Sequence record: OK428535.1
Reading direction: 5' to 3' (one strand)
DNA from: Escherichia phage vB_EcoM_Lh1B
DNA length: 64,000 nucleotides
A program made the translations under genes and the position numbers. How positions within the stretch are numbered: the stretch's first letter is position 1; every line of letters starts with the position of its first letter. Positions 7,100 to 51,300 of the stretch are shown here, piece after piece. The notes beneath the pieces are model-generated. The model did no database searches and was not told where the DNA came from. It was given only the letters and a program-made list of their open reading frames with translations.

Positions 7100-7417
7100 A
7101 TGTGGTTAAGTGCTATTCATCGTGACCTGCCGAAACGTAAAGTAACTATTAATGTCGATGCGGAACCGATTGAAGTCGGTATGGCTAAGTTCGATCGTAT
7201 GGAAGAAGGTCAGTTCGTCGTTGTGGATAATGATGAAAACGAATTCATGTTATTCCATCCCGAAGTTGATGCGTCTGAAATCCGCGAGGGTTCTATCTTG
7301 TTTTCTTGGCAAGACAAAGAAACTAAACAGTGGATGTGGTGCGTTGCTAACACAACCAATGAAAAAGGTACCGCGTATGCCCCAGGACAGCTTCATGTCG
7401 AACCTAAACCCCATTGA
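7100..7417 (+). CDS. Hypothetical protein
   Basis: 105-aa ORF with AAGAGG upstream. Confidence 0.6.
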   Translation: MWLSAIHRDLPKRKVTINVDAEPIEVGMAKFDRMEEGQFVVVDNDENEFMLFHPEVDASEIREGSILFSWQDKETKQWMWCVANTTNEKGTAYAPGQLHVEPKPH

Positions 7418-7709
7418 GCCCACGCTGACGCACCAGGAACTGCACGTCCGTTTTATTCGGGCGTTCACACCCCCGTTAGGTGGTGAGGTACACGATCGTT
7501 CCGTGGTTGCAGAAGTTAAAGGTATCGGCGAAGAACTAATGACACTGTCTAATATTGTGACGGGTGTTGAGTTCACGTTACCGTTAAACGTATTTCGGTT
7601 TATTCCGCGCGTAAACGAAACGCTGCTCATCGACCGTGTACATCATCGGATTATGGCGCAGGTACATCCTAGCCGTAAAGAGTATGTGCGCTTAGAGATG
7701 ATGGTCTAA
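7377..7709 (+). CDS. Hypothetical protein, start uncertain
   Basis: Downstream part of track ORF 7152-7709. In-frame ATGs at 7377 and 7395 both have an A/G-rich Shine-Dalgarno; the upstream part of the track ORF overlaps the 7100-7417 gene out of frame. Confidence 0.4.
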   Translation: MPQDSFMSNLNPIEPTLTHQELHVRFIRAFTPPLGGEVHDRSVVAEVKGIGEELMTLSNIVTGVEFTLPLNVFRFIPRVNETLLIDRVHHRIMAQVHPSRKEYVRLEMMV

Positions 7710-45094: not shown

Positions 45095-45982
45095 TTAAAT
45101 ATAATCAATGGCGAATAAAGGATCTTCGTCTACGTTAGCGCCAGGCACCAGTAACATCGGGTCGTGATAGGCAGCTAAAATTTTGTTCAGGTCGGCGTGT
45201 CTTTCGTTCAGACGTTTCAAATCGGCCAACGTTACCGAACGACCACGAATCTCAGAAACAGCTTCTGCTTCTTCTTTCGTTAAATCCACCTTCGTTAAGA
45301 GGAAACTTACCAGCTTACTCAAATCCGCTTCTGTCGCCGGGTAATCCCCATATCGGGTTTGAACCAGGTGTTGCATCCACGGCTTACGAATACGTTTGGT
45401 GATTTCAAAATCGTCAGTCAGCGCATACCAGACAGAACGCTTTTTATCCCACACGAACTTATAGCTATACGCCATCATGTCCGCTAAACGGGTGATGCCG
45501 AGTTCTTTATACCCCTCGATATCGATGTATGGTTCGGTGTCGAAATACGTTTCCGTATCGGCAGGTACCAGTACAAAGTAGTAAGGGAACGAGCCCAGAT
45601 AGTCCGGACTCCACCAACGGCGCGCCATCGGTTTTGCTTCAAGTTCGTCAAACGGTGTAAACATCAGTTCTAAATCGACGCTGTTGTTCAAAATCCCTTC
45701 GCTGAAGAAATACTTACCGTCGACTAACACGCCACGAGAGTTACCATCGCCGTTAAAGATAACGATGGCCTCTGCAACCATATCACGGATCTTAAACGTA
45801 TTTTCTACGGTGTAGTTCTTCTTGTCGGTCAAGAAGCGACCACGAACCTTTGGCCACTCACCAGGAATCTGTGCAATCAGTCTGACTTTGTCAGCAAGGT
45901 GCGCACGCACTGAATCTGGGGAAGATAGATGCAGCGGGTGGTTGAATGTGGTTTTATACGCAAGATGCAAATCGTTTTTCAT
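45095..45982 (-). CDS. Hypothetical protein between the Cys-rich peptides and the rSAM genes
   Basis: 295-aa ORF with GGAG Shine-Dalgarno; no motif assigned. Confidence 0.65.
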   Translation of the reverse strand: MKNDLHLAYKTTFNHPLHLSSPDSVRAHLADKVRLIAQIPGEWPKVRGRFLTDKKNYTVENTFKIRDMVAEAIVIFNGDGNSRGVLVDGKYFFSEGILNNSVDLELMFTPFDELEAKPMARRWWSPDYLGSFPYYFVLVPADTETYFDTEPYIDIEGYKELGITRLADMMAYSYKFVWDKKRSVWYALTDDFEITKRIRKPWMQHLVQTRYGDYPATEADLSKLVSFLLTKVDLTKEEAEAVSEIRGRSVTLADLKRLNERHADLNKILAAYHDPMLLVPGANVDEDPLFAIDYI

Positions 45983-46004
45983 TTAATACTCCGAACGTTT
46001 TCTG

Positions 46005-46211
46005 TTATCGATTCCCCGCTCCACGGCTACAGCTTCCGCTGCAGGACCAGCTACACCCACCATTACAGTTATAGTGAGAAAGCGGTAAGCCAGCCAGGTT
46101 ATTTGTGGTCGACACGGTGCCCTGGTTAGCGATATAGTTGTTTGCCTGTGCGGTTGTAATGTAACCTTCTACCGTAACGAGACGGTTTCGAATAGTCTTG
46201 AGACTGATCAT
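46005..46211 (-). CDS. Cys-rich leader/core peptide P3 (68 aa); candidate rSAM substrate
   Basis: MISLKTIRNRL leader related to P1/P2, then SHYNCNGGCSWSCSGSCS core; GGAGG Shine-Dalgarno. Confidence 0.7.
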   Translation of the reverse strand: MISLKTIRNRLVTVEGYITTAQANNYIANQGTVSTTNNLAGLPLSHYNCNGGCSWSCSGSCSRGAGNR

Positions 46212-46226
46212 ATAAGCCTCCGTCAG

Positions 46227-46631
46227 TTAGGAGTTAGGACCTGAACAACCACCAGAACACGCGCCGGAGCAGTTTGCGGAACAGGATTTGCCACAGCCGC
46301 CAGAGCAGTTACCAGTACACGTTCCGCTACAACCACCAGAACATGAAGAGCTGCAACCCGTACAGCTGCTGCTACAGCCCGATACACAGTTTGCGGAACA
46401 AGTCGACCCACAACCACCCGTAGCAGACCCAGTACACCCGCCAGAACAACTCGAGCAACTAAAAGAGCATGTGCCACCACAGTCATAGTGCGAACGGCCT
46501 TGACCTGCGAACAAGTCGGCGTTATTCGTAGCTTTATTGCGAATGTAGTTTTGCACATTCGTGGTGTTCTTTAAAGCGTTTGCATCGATCGTGTTTAATC
46601 GGTTATTCAGTTCTTTTAATCCAATTGCCAT
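46227..46631 (-). CDS. Cys-rich leader/core peptide P2 (134 aa); candidate rSAM substrate
   Basis: MAIGLKELNNRL leader, then about 80 aa of C-(G/S/T)3-C repeats starting HYDCGGTCSFSCSSCSGGC; AAGGGGGA Shine-Dalgarno. Confidence 0.75.
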   Translation of the reverse strand: MAIGLKELNNRLNTIDANALKNTTNVQNYIRNKATNNADLFAGQGRSHYDCGGTCSFSCSSCSGGCTGSATGGCGSTCSANCVSGCSSSCTGCSSSCSGGCSGTCTGNCSGGCGKSCSANCSGACSGGCSGPNS

Positions 46632-46641
46632 TTAATCCCCC

Positions 46642-47034
46642 TTAGCGACCTGAACAGCCGCCGGNGCAGGCCCCGGNGCAGTTTGCGGAANAGNAGCCNC
46701 CNCAACCNNCTGAAAAGTTACCGGTACAGCTACTACTGCAACCACCAGAACAACCAGAGCAACCAGAACAGTTACCGCCACACGTCGAAGAACAGCTACC
46801 GATACAAGAAGCAGAACAGCTTCCTGAACAGCTCGAACAGCCATGCGAGCAACCGTTAGAGCANGTCCAAGAACATGTCCCGCCGCAATCTAGCTGTGCT
46901 TTCGTCCAACCCCCAAATCGGTCTGCTGCATTATGGGCTTTAGAGGCCACTTGCGCCTCGATGCGGGGGCCTGTCGCCATGTTAGCTTCGACNATCTGGA
47001 CGCGGTTTCTGACGTCTTTAATAGATATCGCCAT
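46642..47034 (-). CDS. Cys-rich leader/core peptide P1 (130 aa); candidate rSAM substrate
   Basis: MAISIKDVRNRV leader, then QLDCGGTCSW.CSNGCSHGCSSCSGSC... repeats; AAGGAAG Shine-Dalgarno; Ns near the 3' end. Confidence 0.75.
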   Translation of the reverse strand: MAISIKDVRNRVQXVEANMATGPRIEAQVASKAHNAADRFGGWTKAQLDCGGTCSWXCSNGCSHGCSSCSGSCSASCIGSCSSTCGGNCSGCSGCSGGCSSSCTGNFSXGXXGXXSANCXGACXGGCSGR

Positions 47035-47045
47035 TACGCTTCCTT

Positions 47046-47091
47046 AAAAAGTAGAACGAGCGGACTATGTCCATAAACATAGTCCGGCTCG
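47046..47091 (-). terminator. Intra-operon hairpin, possible attenuator between the fibre gene and the Cys-rich peptide genes
   Basis: cgagcggactatg...catagtccggctcg stem with a T-rich tail on the minus strand, immediately before the P1 RBS. Confidence 0.45.
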
Positions 47092-47099
47092 TAAACAAG

Positions 47100-48302
47100 T
47101 TACTTAGTACCCGCTTCAGCTTGAACATCGTCGCGCGAGGTGAGGCTGTTGTTGACGTGAACAGCAGCCTGCACAACACCTCCATACTGTTTATGGAGGT
47201 AATTCGGGTGTGGGTTATCCGCAGCCGCATGGTTCGCCAGATTCTGGTTTGCCTGCGAAATTGCGTTGGTGTTGTTTATAACCTGAGTTTTAAGACTGTT
47301 GATTTGTCCTTGCAGGTTATCAATTTGCTGTTGGAAGTCTTTGCCCTGATTCTCAAGATCCGTGACGCGCTGATTTGTTTCATTCAGTGCAGACTGAAGA
47401 TCGTTAACCATCTTCTGTAATTGCAACACCAGAGAATTAAGGTTAGCTAATGCTAACGACATTTTCTGGTAATTTTGAGCAACCACGTTAAGCTGGTCGT
47501 TCCACGCGGCTAACGAAGCCACAATTGCATCGATGCGTTGCCCCAACGCCGTGTCTGCTNCTCTTAAGTCGCCGATATCGTTGATAGTGGCGTCAATGGC
47601 AGTCTGTACACTTTGAATCAGGGCACGAATCTCCGTCTCCGTCAGGCCATTAACCTGATGAATGTCGAGATTGTGTACGTTACCTTCGGCGTTGATGTGT
47701 GTATTTAAGGCGTCGAGGAAGTCGTTTCTCAGACCGTCCAGAATACCTTTAATTTCTTCCAGCTGTACTGCAGAGCCGGAGTTAATCGCATCTTTAATCC
47801 CCGCGAGTACGGTAATGATATACTCAAAACCGTAGATATCGCCAAGGTCTTTATACGTCGGGGCGGACGGGAACGTATCGGGTACGTTTCGAAGATCCTT
47901 GAAGTCCACCACACGGTCTTCAATTTTCAGCGACGCAATCGCTTGTCGGATGCCTTCGACGTTCGCGGACTGAAAACCACCAACGACTTGCGCAGAGACT
48001 TCGATATCAGTAGGAATGGCCGAGTTAGTTACCACCACACCCATGACCACTTCGCGGTTCTTGGTCATTTTCTGATATGCAGTATGTGCAAAAATCAGTT
48101 CGTAGTCTGTGCCGCGTTTGTACGGGTAGACACCTGGTTTATTCGCAGCTGCCAAGCGGAAGGTATCCGCGTAGAAAGCTCCGTCAGGAAAAGCAAAAGC
48201 CCGGTTAACTTTACCAGAACCTAACGTAATACGCCGTGTAACGGCGTTCGACGTTAATGTCCCGGTAAGGTCGAGCGGGTACTGATGAATGATTTCGGCC
48301 AT
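47100..48302 (-). CDS. Tail fibre-like protein with gp17-like N-terminal motif and central coiled coil
   Basis: ATG at 48302 (MAEIIHQ) follows AAGGAG; track start 48338 lacks an RBS. N-terminus RAFAFPDGAFYADTFRL...KRGTDYELIF fits the T7 gp17 anchor pattern; heptad-like LANLNSLVLQLQKMVNDLQSALNETNQRVTDLENQ. Confidence 0.7.
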   Translation of the reverse strand: MAEIIHQYPLDLTGTLTSNAVTRRITLGSGKVNRAFAFPDGAFYADTFRLAAANKPGVYPYKRGTDYELIFAHTAYQKMTKNREVVMGVVVTNSAIPTDIEVSAQVVGGFQSANVEGIRQAIASLKIEDRVVDFKDLRNVPDTFPSAPTYKDLGDIYGFEYIITVLAGIKDAINSGSAVQLEEIKGILDGLRNDFLDALNTHINAEGNVHNLDIHQVNGLTETEIRALIQSVQTAIDATINDIGDLRXADTALGQRIDAIVASLAAWNDQLNVVAQNYQKMSLALANLNSLVLQLQKMVNDLQSALNETNQRVTDLENQGKDFQQQIDNLQGQINSLKTQVINNTNAISQANQNLANHAAADNPHPNYLHKQYGGVVQAAVHVNNSLTSRDDVQAEAGTK

Positions 48303-48349
48303 TGCCAAACTCCTTTGATTGGGGCTTCCTTGCCCCATAGCGCTATCTG

Positions 48350-51300
48350 TTAGGTACGGAACATAAGATTGACCTGGATAATATCAGGCTGTTGACGTCC
48401 TCTCTCGTTCACCCAATCGTGTGCAATCGTTAACGTAAGATCATCGCCTTCCCACGACACGATCGGTGGTGGGAATAAACCCTGAGCGCCCGTGGTAACA
48501 ACCGGGATTGCACCTGCCACATTCGTAAACGTATAGCTACGACTGTTCAGAACAACCGGTGTGCCGTGGGTCTCTCCCGGCTGTGGTAAGATTTGAATCT
48601 TACTATCCGAAAGATCGGTGGTGATTGGTAGACCCCCAGCGTCCGTGAAAAGCCAAGAGCAAATATNCTGGTTNGCTGTTTCGAGCGCTGAAGAACTCTT
48701 CACAGCCGCGAAAGTAAAGGTGCACGGCACGCCTGCTGGCAGAGAGTGCTGTTTGTGGTGCACGGTATGTGGTGACGGCAATAACACTTCTGGATTTTCG
48801 TCAATGTTAACATCCGTACCTTCCGCCTCGACGTTGTAGAAAAAGCCATCCACCGCCTCCCATGGGGCAACGTGGACATTAAAGGTCGTTTCTACTCCCG
48901 GTGTACCTGGGACGACGAATTTACTTTGCACCACCACCATCATAGTTCTTGAGGTCGGTGAGAAAGCGGGCGTTGGAATACCTACCCACTCCATTCCCAA
49001 CGATGCCGCTTCACCGTTCTCATCAGCCGTTACCGTCGCGATTGTTGTAGGATGTTTCCAAAACGCCCCCGACTTGTTTGCCTGAGTAAACGCCGGCAAA
49101 GTTTTCAAGCCTTCGAAACGTTTGGACACCATCGCTTTACCGCGACGCTGTGCGTCAGATACGGTATAAAGCAACTGACTATCCAGATAGCCTTTCGTAG
49201 CATCGATCGACAAAGGACCCATCGCTTCTTTACGCAATGGTGCCAGTCTGCCCGTTGCTGCATCCCTTCCCACTTCCACATCATGCTTATTCTCAACCGC
49301 CGCATGTTCCAACAGTTGTTTCACCGCCCCCAATCGCTTAGCATGTTCGACGTTAGTCTCGACGACTCGTGACGAGCCCGTTTTAACATACCCGATATAG
49401 AGTTCCGTTTCAGTGTCTGGATGTTGAATCACGTCCATTACGTACTTCGGTGTACCATTTTCTACCTTGGCGTGCAGGTAGAATGTCCGGTTCTGATGGT
49501 TTGTTGGAAATGCTGCGCTGAGGTCAATATACCACGTAGGCAGCTTATAAGTGCTCGAGCCGAAACGCAGGTCAACTTCCTCAGTCACATATACCAGCCA
49601 ACCTTCGGCTGTTTCCACNCCAGCAATGACGACCGATTCAGTCGGGCCACTAAAATTAGGAGCCGCGACAAAATCACTCGACGACATTGCGATACCACCA
49701 CAATAGACGTAGTCGAGAGATGAGTTGTGTAGCATCACCTGATCACGATGAGCCAGATAAGCTGGGCTGACTGGAGTGTGTGATGGTGCCATGCGTCCAA
49801 TGCCGTGTGGAGCAGAAGAACGCGTCCAGGTACCATTAGACAGCGTAAGACCAACACCGTAGTTAAGCGCACCCAAGTCGCCAATTTGGCGCAAGGTTAA
49901 CGTGTGTGGAAGATACAACCCGAACTGCGTACCATCTACTGACACCAGTGTAGGTTGTCCCGGCCGGCGTGTTTTTCCTCCCGTTATCTCACCCAACGTA
50001 GCATAGTTCAAGCCATAGTCGAGGTTGTTATAGAAGTCAAACAATGCCAATATCGCTGCCGGGAATGTTACCTGCCCGTTACTGATTGTTGGTTTCAGTG
50101 TAAAGTAGTAGATATCCAACAAGTTAACATTGTTCACAGTACGCGTACATGCTACTTGTGCTAACGTGAGCGGTGTGGCCGTACCAATGCCGATGAACCA
50201 AATGGAGAACAGTGCCTTTCCGGCGTTATTTGCGGCAAGGATAAATTCCGAAGCATAACCATTCGCAGCGCCAGCCGGTGCGCCGTCGATAATCATCTGC
50301 TTCATCTTATCCCATTCGGCTTGTGACAGCGTCAACCGATCGGCATGAATCGTGAAAGTGCCAGAAACGTTGTGGTAAGGGAATGTTTCTGGTCCTGTGC
50401 AATACCAGCCGTTTAACTCTGTACCAGGCGACGCCGGTGTAACAATGTGGCACATCTGCGACAGATTCTCGTACGTGGTAGAATCTACTACACGACGATT
50501 GTTAGTTGGTCCATACCCCGCTTTACCTGAATAAGTGGTGTTCGGATCAAACTCAACTTCAATTGCCAAACGGGTACGCGGCTGTGACAACCAGATAAGT
50601 CTGGAATTCGCTCCCAGAGTCAGCGGATACGCCATGCCCAGCTCGTAGATAGAACCACGACCTTGGTTTAACATTACCGCACTAAAACTTCTGGCAGTGA
50701 AGTTGTAGTCGCACGACAGGTACTCGTACCAACTCACACCGTCATCTAACGTTGTAATCGTGACATAAGGCATTAGGTCGCGATCGCCTGCATGTCCTTG
50801 CGAAACGATATACTTGTCTTGCGATGTTGCAAAGGTTCGGTTATTAGCTTGACCTTCGCCCCATTTCCGGCTCGGAATCCCAATCTCAGCGCCACCGTTA
50901 TAACGAACCGTGGTAAGATCGGCCACAATAGGGAATCGATCAGCACCTTCCAGCGTTATCGTCATTGAACTACAATCAACAACAAAGCTTGACACCCATT
51001 GTTTAAAGTTAATAGTTTGCCCTGTAGTAGAAGCAAACCAAACCGTTGGAGTTAAACCAACACGAAAGTTCAGCCCATCCACACCAATCGCGTGATTACA
51101 TTCCGGACCATGGACAAATTTCGTCGCACTATTCCACTTCGCCGATGCGTCTGCGTAGATTTGTGTTACTGGCGCTACCAACACATCTGTATCAGAACGN
51201 TTCTGACCCTGACGCAAGTAGATATTATCTCCCGACGTTAACATCCCACCTGTTAACACATCCGCCACAAACGTGTTGCTACCACCCAGATTAAGTTCGT

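Follow-up and report, generated by a model that had tools for sequence, protein, structure and literature searches.

What would a phage need with three small, related proteins of which two carry long cysteine repeats with a period of mostly four residues, and are such proteins made at all? The question is raised by three adjacent open reading frames (ORFs), here termed P1, P2 and P3, in a 64,000-nucleotide stretch of the genome of Escherichia phage vB_EcoM_Lh1B (record OK428535.1; this whole stretch is referred to as the window). A first-pass annotation, made without database searches, had described the three as paralogous Cys-rich peptides with a leader and a core, a layout like that of RiPPs, peptides that are made on ribosomes and modified after translation. 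We find that P1-P3 are genuine genes that lie beside a radical S-adenosylmethionine (radical SAM) enzyme whose best curated match is a maturase of CXXX-repeat targets, and that such gene pairs recur in the tail modules of unrelated phages. On balance we lean towards a reading in which P1-P3 are proteins cross-linked by radical SAM enzymes that work together with the tail fibres.

Over positions 45000-48400 the window agrees with Salmonella phage MET_P1_082_240 at 99.0% of nucleotides and with SPN3US at 96.9%, and it shares 78-81% identity over the same stretch with Erwinia phage pEa_SNUABM_29 and Salmonella phage SPAsTU. The source is an SPN3US-like jumbo phage of the genus Seoulvirus. There are 259 N bases scattered in the window, and the 3' end of P1 has eight; these eight (46665-46709) sit in the part of P1 that is most like the 3' end of P2, and may result from mis-assignment of reads between the two paralogues at assembly. 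Clean relatives (L001-L004) were used beside the window, and the complete P1 sequence was read from their copies.

P1, P2 and P3 are genes under purifying selection

All three ORFs are present as described at first pass and lie on the minus strand, no strand having been named before. The strong Shine-Dalgarno sequence claimed for each gene was recovered, with anti-Shine-Dalgarno pairing energies of -6.1 (P1), -11.0 (P2) and -9.5 (P3) kcal/mol and a spacing of 4-5 nt to the three start codons. The codon-level test that had been suggested, the ratio of non-synonymous to synonymous substitution rates (dN/dS), was carried out as Nei-Gojobori counts in all six frames with orthologues from three phages. 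In the proposed frame of P1-P3 the ratio was 0.00-0.06, with dS high to saturated, which demonstrates purifying selection, whereas the four out-of-phase frames gave values of 1.45-6.13. For P2, the two shifted frames on the same strand gave 1.87-4.78, and it is one of these that RefSeq annotates. The antisense frame gave 0.00-0.17, an expected shadow because its wobble positions are common with those of the true frame.

The repeat itself is not a feature of the DNA. The 17 period-4 units of P1 all differ in nucleotide sequence (17/17; mean pairwise identity 0.51), and Tandem Repeats Finder returned two short weak arrays only. Over their final 30 residues P1 and P2 are identical at 28/30 positions as protein and 76% identical as DNA; the varied codons and this level of DNA identity between the C-termini rule out a DNA-level tandem repeat or a recent gene conversion. 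The period-4 pattern is thus a property of the protein, and no Rfam family matched either strand. The first-pass annotation had named two outcomes that would count against its claim, conservation in another frame and conservation of the repeat at the nucleotide level alone; neither was seen in the dN/dS and repeat-unit analyses.

It had also warned that ORFs in further frames and on the opposite strand make the region easy to mis-annotate. Such overlapping ORFs are present, and public records do skip genes here or call the wrong frame or strand. In the RefSeq and GenBank records of SPN3US, a 336-nt coding sequence (CDS; SPN3US_0166/ACQ60_gp100) is a wrong-frame Val/Ala/Leu-rich ORF inside P2, mapping to window positions 46223-46558 (minus strand; 7224-7559 of locus L004), and P1 and P3 are uncalled. 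In pEa_SNUABM_29, genes 00267 and 00268 are called on the strand opposite P1 and P2 (locus L002, 7215-7487 and 7722-7934, plus strand), and a metagenome gene call (locus L026, 7964-8332, minus strand) shows the same wrong-strand error. The P1-P3 stretch is empty in the annotations of MET_P1_082_240 and SPAsTU, and 12/51 phage records with a P3 homologue have nothing annotated under it.

Of the three genes, gene callers usually pick up P3 alone, and a profile search yielded mostly P3-sized proteins. Among 15 billion gene calls the exact P1 (two variants) and exact P2 proteins were absent, and exact P3 was found on hundreds of contigs of ~240 kb. The assemblies that contain these contigs are catalogued as Salmonella enterica and E. 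coli isolates, so many surveillance genomes of bacteria include the whole jumbo-phage genome, whether by a carrier state, by pseudolysogeny or by contamination.

Architecture of P1-P3

The common N-terminus described at first pass is found in all three proteins (MAISIKDVRNRV in P1, MAIGLKELNNRL in P2 and MISLKTIRNRL in P3), as is the common core-entry motif (QLDCGGTCSWTCS, HYDCGGTCSFSCS and HYNCNGGCSWSCS respectively), which is conserved as Y-x-C-x-G-x-C-S-W. P1 and P2 then continue into a repeat tail of ~80 residues made of C-(S/T/G)-x-x units. The earlier figure of about 20 cysteines, spaced mostly CxxxC, corresponds to 21 in P1 and 20 in P2, with four in P3. The C-x3-C spacing accounts for 17/20 intervals in P1 and 16/19 in P2, the remainder being C-x2-C and one 8-residue gap, and the period of four is kept in all orthologues. 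Cysteine makes up ~26% of the residues and is flanked by small ones; directly after cysteine in the period-4 units there is Ser or Thr in ~77-80% of cases and Gly in ~14%. The statement that only Gly, Ser, Thr, Ala and Asn lie between the cysteines is almost wholly true, although single Trp/Phe, His, Ile/Val and Lys/Arg residues are also present. No Asp or Glu occurs in the 22 cores examined. Cysteine number is close to fixed over eight lineages, P1 having always 21 and P2 20-21; P3 has four, but two in a CR5-like branch, where the protein ends YRCNGNCSWSASGG... The cores of P1-P3 lack tryptic sites, and the N-terminal tryptic peptides are VQIVEANMATGPR, IEAQVASK and FGGWTK for P1 and LNTIDANALK, NTTNVQNYIR and ATNNADLFAGQGR for P2.

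On the leader/core model an alignment of orthologues had been expected to show a conserved leader and a variable core. The reverse was seen. Between orthologues 7-15 positions differ in the N-terminal 48-50 residues, compared with 0-2 positions in the cores of P1 and P3 and 4-12 in that of P2, and the proportion of non-synonymous differences (pN) is 0.083-0.206 in the N-terminal parts vs 0.000-0.111 in the cores.

The N-terminal helices of P1, P2 and P3 have hydrophobic residues at a 3-4-3-4 spacing in both jumbo-phage lineages examined, a pattern that would fit either an amphipathic helix for binding an enzyme or a short coiled coil. In an AlphaFold2 model of P2 (mean predicted local distance difference test score, pLDDT, 52) two N-terminal helices are moderately supported. 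A Gly-Gly- or Ala-Gly-like motif stands ten residues before the first cysteine (F-G-G at residues 40-42 of P1, F-A-G at 41-43 of P2 and L-A-G at 39-41 of P3); it resembles the cleavage sites of double-glycine leaders and is absent from some homologues, and no C39-type peptidase is encoded near P1-P3. A tail-fibre origin was considered for the junction motif N-x-x-x-L-x-G...Y and dropped, as a set of eight fibre proteins contains it once, where 0.58 occurrences would be expected.

A maturase of the CXXX-repeat target family

Downstream of P3 and on the same strand follow gp165, gp164, gp163, gp162 and gp161. In NCBIfam, gp163 is matched best by TIGR04115, 'radical SAM peptide maturase, CXXX-repeat target family', at 125.6 bits (the best of 64 families; curated cut-off 350), followed by the ranthipeptide maturase PapB, NF047865, at 113.6 bits (cut-off 340); TIGR03974 (SCIFF) scored 53.9 bits (cut-off 425). 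The clean P1 orthologue has a sole NCBIfam match, TIGR04114 'Cys-rich repeat-containing protein', at 18.7 bits (cut-off 20), and P2 and P3 do not match TIGR04114. Distant homologues of P1 lead to a prophage pair that lies above both cut-offs, with an enzyme scoring 389.2 bits against TIGR04115 and a Cys-rich protein scoring 20.5 against TIGR04114. This prophage target also matches phrog_6085, which is the PHROG of P1-P3, and TIGR03906 is among the matches of both gp163 and the prophage enzyme. Judged by these matches, the window cluster is a divergent branch of the curated, uncharacterized TIGR04114/TIGR04115 system (Pfam PF27846, tSAM_targ_Cxxx_rpt). The CXXX-repeat family was probably first defined by Haft and Basu in 2011.

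The CX3CX2C motif of gp163 is formed by C23, C27 and C30, and its C-terminal part has eight cysteines (C280, C288, C298, C342, C345, C351, C354 and C379) that include a CX2CX5CX2C stretch; when six CXXX-type maturases, gp163 and bona fide members together, are aligned, seven auxiliary cysteines prove invariant. The closest solved structure is 5WGG, which we take to be CteB, a thioether-forming SCIFF maturase. The alignment begins with residue 22 of gp163 against residue 106 of the 5WGG chain, so gp163 is without ~85 N-terminal residues of that structure, and it is at its N-terminus that CteB has a peptide-recognition domain, the RiPP recognition element (PMC8326336). The smaller enzyme, gp164, matches Pfam Radical_SAM at 58.8 bits; its CX3CX2C and GGEP motifs and three C-terminal cysteines are invariant in orthologues that are 40-72% identical, and it is thus not a decayed copy.

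The family extends well beyond jumbo phages. An exhaustive profile search gave 1,138 representative clusters at E <= 1e-3. Among the 150 matches listed, most are 160-260 aa long and some are multi-domain proteins of 327-1,610 aa with long CXXX tracts. In one homologue (P0010) a tail-fibre PHROG sequence is fused directly to the same Cys tail. By their size and make-up, the family members would appear to be protein-sized substrates rather than typical RiPP precursors. Among the best 80 genome loci from the maturase profile, 15 have a CXXX-repeat protein, and these are concentrated where the maturase is most closely related. In Clostridia, related maturases have precursors of 45-88 aa, and at 3/4 such loci (L034, L035 and L039) ABC exporters follow, with FtsX-type permeases at two of them; these three loci have a classical exported-RiPP layout.

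Some members are unusual in size or order. In Margulisbacteria (L040-L043; Candidatus Termititenax/Margulisiibacteriota) CXXX proteins of 495-667 aa, some running to as many as 63 consecutive Cys units, lie beside the maturase in a non-phage chromosomal context, and three multi-domain proteins of 934-1,610 aa (P0102, P0175 and P0132) end in or contain very long CXXX tracts. A prophage protein (L033, 9244-9990) is inverted, having its Cys tract at the N-terminus and an 'LK..M..EY.RR' domain at the C-terminus, and its gene is downstream of the maturase, not upstream.

The cluster lies in a tail-fibre and baseplate module

The order fibre gene, P1, P2, P3, gp165, small radical SAM, large radical SAM, gp162, gp161 is kept in 12/12 IMG/VR jumbo phages, in which the maturase is 63-100% identical, and an identical order is found on contigs with a gp165 that is merely 40-46% identical. 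Among isolated phages the maturase is confined to SPN3US-like jumbo phages of Salmonella, Erwinia, Cronobacter, Escherichia and Proteus, together with a few gut contigs. The phage collection has P3 homologues in 51 records and the maturase in 62, all of the same jumbo-phage group, and the two lie ~2 kb apart in the records compared. Target and maturase are therefore adjacent, co-directional and co-inherited.

The gene preceding P1, gp167, encodes a protein of the published SPN3US virion proteome, and gp168-gp170 are baseplate or tail fibre candidates (PMC5694885); gp168 is a tail protein in the SPN3US literature (PMC5694885; PMC5105663). The SPN3US proteome tables have rows for gp158, gp160 and gp167-171 and no rows for gp161-166 (PMC5694885).

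The same setting is found elsewhere. In a prophage of Firmicute type, tape measure, Dit, Tal and a collagen-like tail fibre come first, then the CXXX protein, two small genes and the maturase, and last holin and endolysin. A phage contig from the human gut has the module flanked by a 369-aa fibre-like protein on one side and by more fibre-like genes on the other. In bacterial genomes, three CXXX proteins with long N-terminal domains (L032, L033 and L036) adjoin tail-fibre, baseplate or tail PHROGs, and after a fourth (L030) comes an endolysin. No exporter or protease was found at the phage-type loci, compared with ABC transporters at 3/4 of the short-precursor loci. The tail-module context thus recurs across unrelated phages.

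Neighbouring genes and transcription signals

The features of the region are collected in Table 1. AlphaFold2 models gp165 confidently (pLDDT 88.6) in two parts, alpha/beta at the N-terminus and helical at the C-terminus, and the model has no structural relatives in the PDB or BFVD except its own orthologue; on this model gp165 may be a new fold. The length of gp165 equals the sum of the two prophage accessory proteins (~200 + ~95 aa), but a fusion of these was rejected, as BLASTP and hhalign gave no relationship (probability <1%). For gp162, phrog_7988 matches residues 27-213 of the 214-aa ORF and relatives annotate a 567-nt CDS; the overlap between gp162 and gp163 is 116 nt as listed (42838-42953) and 38 nt with the internal start at ~42875. 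The last gene, gp161, matches Pfam DUF4376 at 38.8 bits and, weakly, a 'tail protein' PHROG, and the hairpin after it, a strong terminator, marks the end of the transcription unit.

Between the gp167 stop codon and the ribosome-binding site of P1 there is a second hairpin (whole-region fold -24 kcal/mol) followed by UUCUACUUUUU. From the predicted fold, this hairpin might act as an attenuator or terminator and so fix how many fibre transcripts are made per P1-P3 transcript, or might stabilize the 5' end of a processed mRNA. No leader peptidase, exporter or immunity gene was found in gp161-gp165 by Pfam, NCBIfam, PHROGs or PADLOC. A role in defence or anti-defence was considered and set aside, as PADLOC shows merely a generic likeness of the radical SAM core to viperins. 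In the annotation of a relative, LR535921.1 (SPFM2), the genes around window position 44126 carry automatic names, 'albA, subtilosin biosynthesis protein' for gp163 and 'moaA' for gp164, that over-interpret generic radical SAM similarity.

Table 1. P1-P3 and neighbouring features, with positions in the window
Feature	Position	Strand	Description	Basis
P1	46642..47034	-	130 aa; ~49-aa N-terminal region with amphipathic helix, then 81-aa CXXX-repeat tail; 21 Cys	ORF, dN/dS, phrog_6085
P2	46227..46631	-	134 aa; paralogue of P1 (55% aa identity); 20 Cys	ORF, dN/dS, phrog_6085; strongest Shine-Dalgarno
P3	46005..46211	-	68 aa; short paralogue, N-terminal region and entry motif as in P1 and P2; 4 Cys	
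gp165-like protein	45095..45982	-	295 aa; candidate accessory factor; gene invariably placed after P3 and before the radical SAM genes	
gp164-like small radical SAM enzyme	44159..45073	-	304 aa	Pfam Radical_SAM, CX3CX2C, GGEP
gp163-like radical SAM/SPASM enzyme	42838..44166	-	442 aa; predicted maturase of P1-P3	
gp162-like protein	42309..42875	-	Likely start is an internal ATG as in annotated relatives; listed ORF reaches 42953	phrog_7988
gp161-like DUF4376 protein	41662..42333	-	Last gene in the co-directional block	Pfam DUF4376
GC-rich hairpin and U tract	41621..41644	-	Directly after gp161	Terminator scan (clean relative) and fold (window)
Intergenic hairpin	within 47045-47095 (hairpin listed 47056..47095)	-	~17 bp, then U-rich tract	RNA fold of 65-nt intergenic region
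gp167-like coiled-coil virion protein	47100..48338	-	Directly upstream of P1	phrog_2163, virion structural protein

Discussion

If neither acted on the other, it would be difficult to account for the recurrent pairing of a CXXX-repeat protein with this type of maturase in unrelated phages and in bacteria. We propose that P1-P3 are substrates of the SPASM-type enzyme gp163, probably together with gp164, and that gp165 is perhaps an accessory or presenting factor. By analogy with PapB, CteB and QhpD, the enzymes would turn many of the Cys thiols along the repeat into thioether (Cys-S-to-carbon) cross-links, and a floppy Gly/Ser-rich tail would become a rigid chain of small rings that is insensitive to reduction. 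Thioethers, unlike disulfides, could be formed in the reducing cytoplasm, and would provide a reduction-proof substitute for a protein that is used outside the cell. The acceptor may be Ser or Thr, or an alpha carbon (sactionine-type); a Thr acceptor has been reported for CteA. Because the block is embedded in a tail-fibre/baseplate operon in every lineage examined, a function with the tail fibres is suggested, and the mature products would most likely be a minor virion component or an assembly factor rather than exported antibiotics. A bolder and more doubtful proposal is that cross-linked P1-P3 rods, possibly joined via their heptad-patterned N-terminal helices, form part of the tail-fibre/baseplate apparatus of SPN3US.

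The closest comparison is with the curated TIGR04114/TIGR04115 system itself. Common to both are tandem C-x-x-x repeats at the C-terminus, in which Ser, Gly and Thr abound, and an adjacent, co-directional radical SAM/SPASM enzyme with a CX3CX2C motif and auxiliary cysteines, and bona fide members are also found in phage tail modules. The window differs in scoring below the family cut-offs for maturase and target (125.6 vs 350 and 18.7 vs 20 bits), in having three paralogous targets instead of one, with N-terminal regions of ~48 aa instead of ~100 aa, in its second, smaller radical SAM enzyme, and in having gp165 in place of the ~200-aa and ~95-aa accessory proteins, to which it has no detectable homology. 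PapB and CteB, the enzymes of freyrasin and of SCIFF (thermocellin), are of the SPASM type, form Cys thioethers (PMC8326336) and are among the matches of gp163. The period-4 spacing of the freyrasin precursor resembles the repeats of P1 and P2. PapB, however, reportedly links Cys to an Asp four residues on, and the window cores are without an Asp/Glu acceptor and have 20-21 cysteines vs six; gp163 also falls short of the PapB and SCIFF cut-offs (113.6 vs 340 and 53.9 vs 425 bits), and the window has a tail-fibre operon context and no genes for leader processing or export.

If the product is a modified protein and not a peptide for export, the best analogy is QhpD, the enzyme that modifies the small gamma subunit of quinohemoprotein amine dehydrogenase. 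QhpD is a radical SAM/SPASM enzyme outside the RiPP class; it puts several Cys thioethers into the polypeptide of an enzyme, and the modified chain remains in the working assembly (PMC8326336). The TIGR03906 match seen for both gp163 and the prophage enzyme is a further point of likeness. Its acceptors are Asp and Glu, its substrate is non-repetitive and belongs to a bacterial periplasmic enzyme, and its similarity to the window enzyme is merely distant. The hairpin layout of sactipeptides, with donors in one half and acceptors in the other, is not seen in P1 and P2, where cysteines are evenly spread along the core; a sactipeptide-type alpha-carbon linkage is the sole chemistry able to use the Gly that follows ~14% of the cysteines. 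A different kind of comparison is with the small proteins encoded 3' of tail-fibre genes, which are assembly chaperones or tip adhesins and of which gp38 of T4 and T2 is an example. P1-P3 have the same position directly after the fibre gene in each lineage examined, and a similar Gly-rich low complexity. These chaperones and adhesins are not Cys-rich and have no radical SAM partner, and P1-P3 are conserved across hosts in contrast to the hypervariable adhesins; no sequence or predicted-structure similarity between the two groups was found.

Several observations weigh against our proposal. All scores of window proteins against curated families are below cut-off, and no peptide-recognition domain was identified in any protein of the cluster. 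AlphaFold2 yields no confident model of the Cys tail of P2. As the cores contain no Asp or Glu, the Cys-to-Asp reaction of PapB would not be applicable as such. P1-P3 are very highly conserved between phages that infect Salmonella, Erwinia, Escherichia and Proteus, which speaks against a role in receptor specificity. The assignment of a tail context leaves out L009 and L010, of which L009 is a phage-type locus. Full-text searches of the literature gave us no biochemical data for any CXXX-repeat system, and nothing on this cluster, on the function of TIGR04114/TIGR04115 or on phage tail proteins modified by radical SAM enzymes. Nor are radical SAM enzymes, RiPPs or thioethers mentioned in a review of jumbo-phage biology from June 2026. 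The absence of P1-P3 from the SPN3US proteome tables is no evidence either way, as the genes are unannotated and their cores have no tryptic sites.

Of the other explanations, the one nearest to the first-pass annotation is that P1-P3 are classical RiPPs, in which a leader of ~48 residues guides the radical SAM enzymes and is removed, and the cross-linked core leaves the cell at lysis and acts outside it, for instance as a bacteriocin-like weapon on competing bacteria or phages or in signalling. Part of the RiPP-like reading stands, as radical SAM genes lie just downstream and the larger of them is best matched by the CXXX-target maturase. The small size of the proteins (68-134 aa), their conserved amphipathic N-terminal helix and a SPASM neighbour related to RiPP maturases would all suit such a peptide; the Clostridia relatives with their short precursors and exporters show the corresponding layout, and phage lysis would remove the need for an exporter in a phage. 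The GG/AG-like motif ten residues before the first cysteine points the same way, but is not found in all homologues. What does not fit is that the core is more conserved than the N-terminus and the Cys counts are fixed, where typical precursor families have diversifying cores, that no peptidase, exporter or immunity gene is in the cluster, that the genes are always located inside a tail-fibre operon, and that most family members are ~200 aa long or fused to large proteins. To read P1-P3 as leader/core precursors of a secreted peptide is probably wrong, and we consider a classical RiPP unlikely, at something like one chance among several.

Less likely again is that P1-P3 are not radical SAM substrates and instead bind metal or are stapled by disulfides or metal, either like metallothioneins or as a Cys counterpart of metal-coordinating fibre repeats, the radical SAM enzymes modifying fibre proteins, a metabolite or a nucleic acid. 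The ~26% cysteine with small flanking residues and no acidic acceptors would be in keeping with this, as would sub-threshold scores for target and maturase and the lack of a recognition domain linking enzyme to peptides; set against it are the recurrence of a CXXX protein with the same maturase clade (15/80 of the best genome loci) and the fact that the sole curated match of P1 is to the family defined as the target of that maturase. Finally, the ORFs might not be genes, but a by-product of repetitive DNA or of a gene in another frame or strand, as the several overlapping ORFs annotated in public records could suggest. This has already been refuted by the comparative data and can be given practically no weight: dN/dS is 0.00-0.06 in the proposed frame vs 1.45-6.13 out of phase, codons vary between repeat units with no tandem array in the DNA, ribosome-binding sites are strong, the proteins are conserved at nucleotide-diverged distances of 63-78%, and Rfam has no match on either strand.

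SPN3US is a genetic model for giant phages, and its reference annotation is without two of the three genes and has the third locus in the wrong frame. P1-P3 are therefore absent from the protein set that is normally used in proteomic searches, and annotation pipelines systematically miss or mis-call Cys-repeat genes of this kind. The amber-mutant toolkit of this phage, its E. coli/Salmonella host and substrates of 130 aa provide a tractable system for the chemistry of the uncharacterized CXXX-repeat radical SAM family. The recurrent tail-fibre context, in a jumbo myophage, in Firmicute-type prophages and in gut phages, suggests radical peptide cross-linking on phage tail-associated proteins, of which, as far as we could find, there is no earlier description. 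If true, this would be a new post-translational chemistry in phage assembly and would give RiPP-type enzymes a wider role. On the bolder and more doubtful proposal of a structural role in the virion, the protein-sized CXXX branch would be a widespread maturation module for phage tail fibres, in which RiPP-type chemistry has been recruited for the architecture of the virion and not for secreted products.

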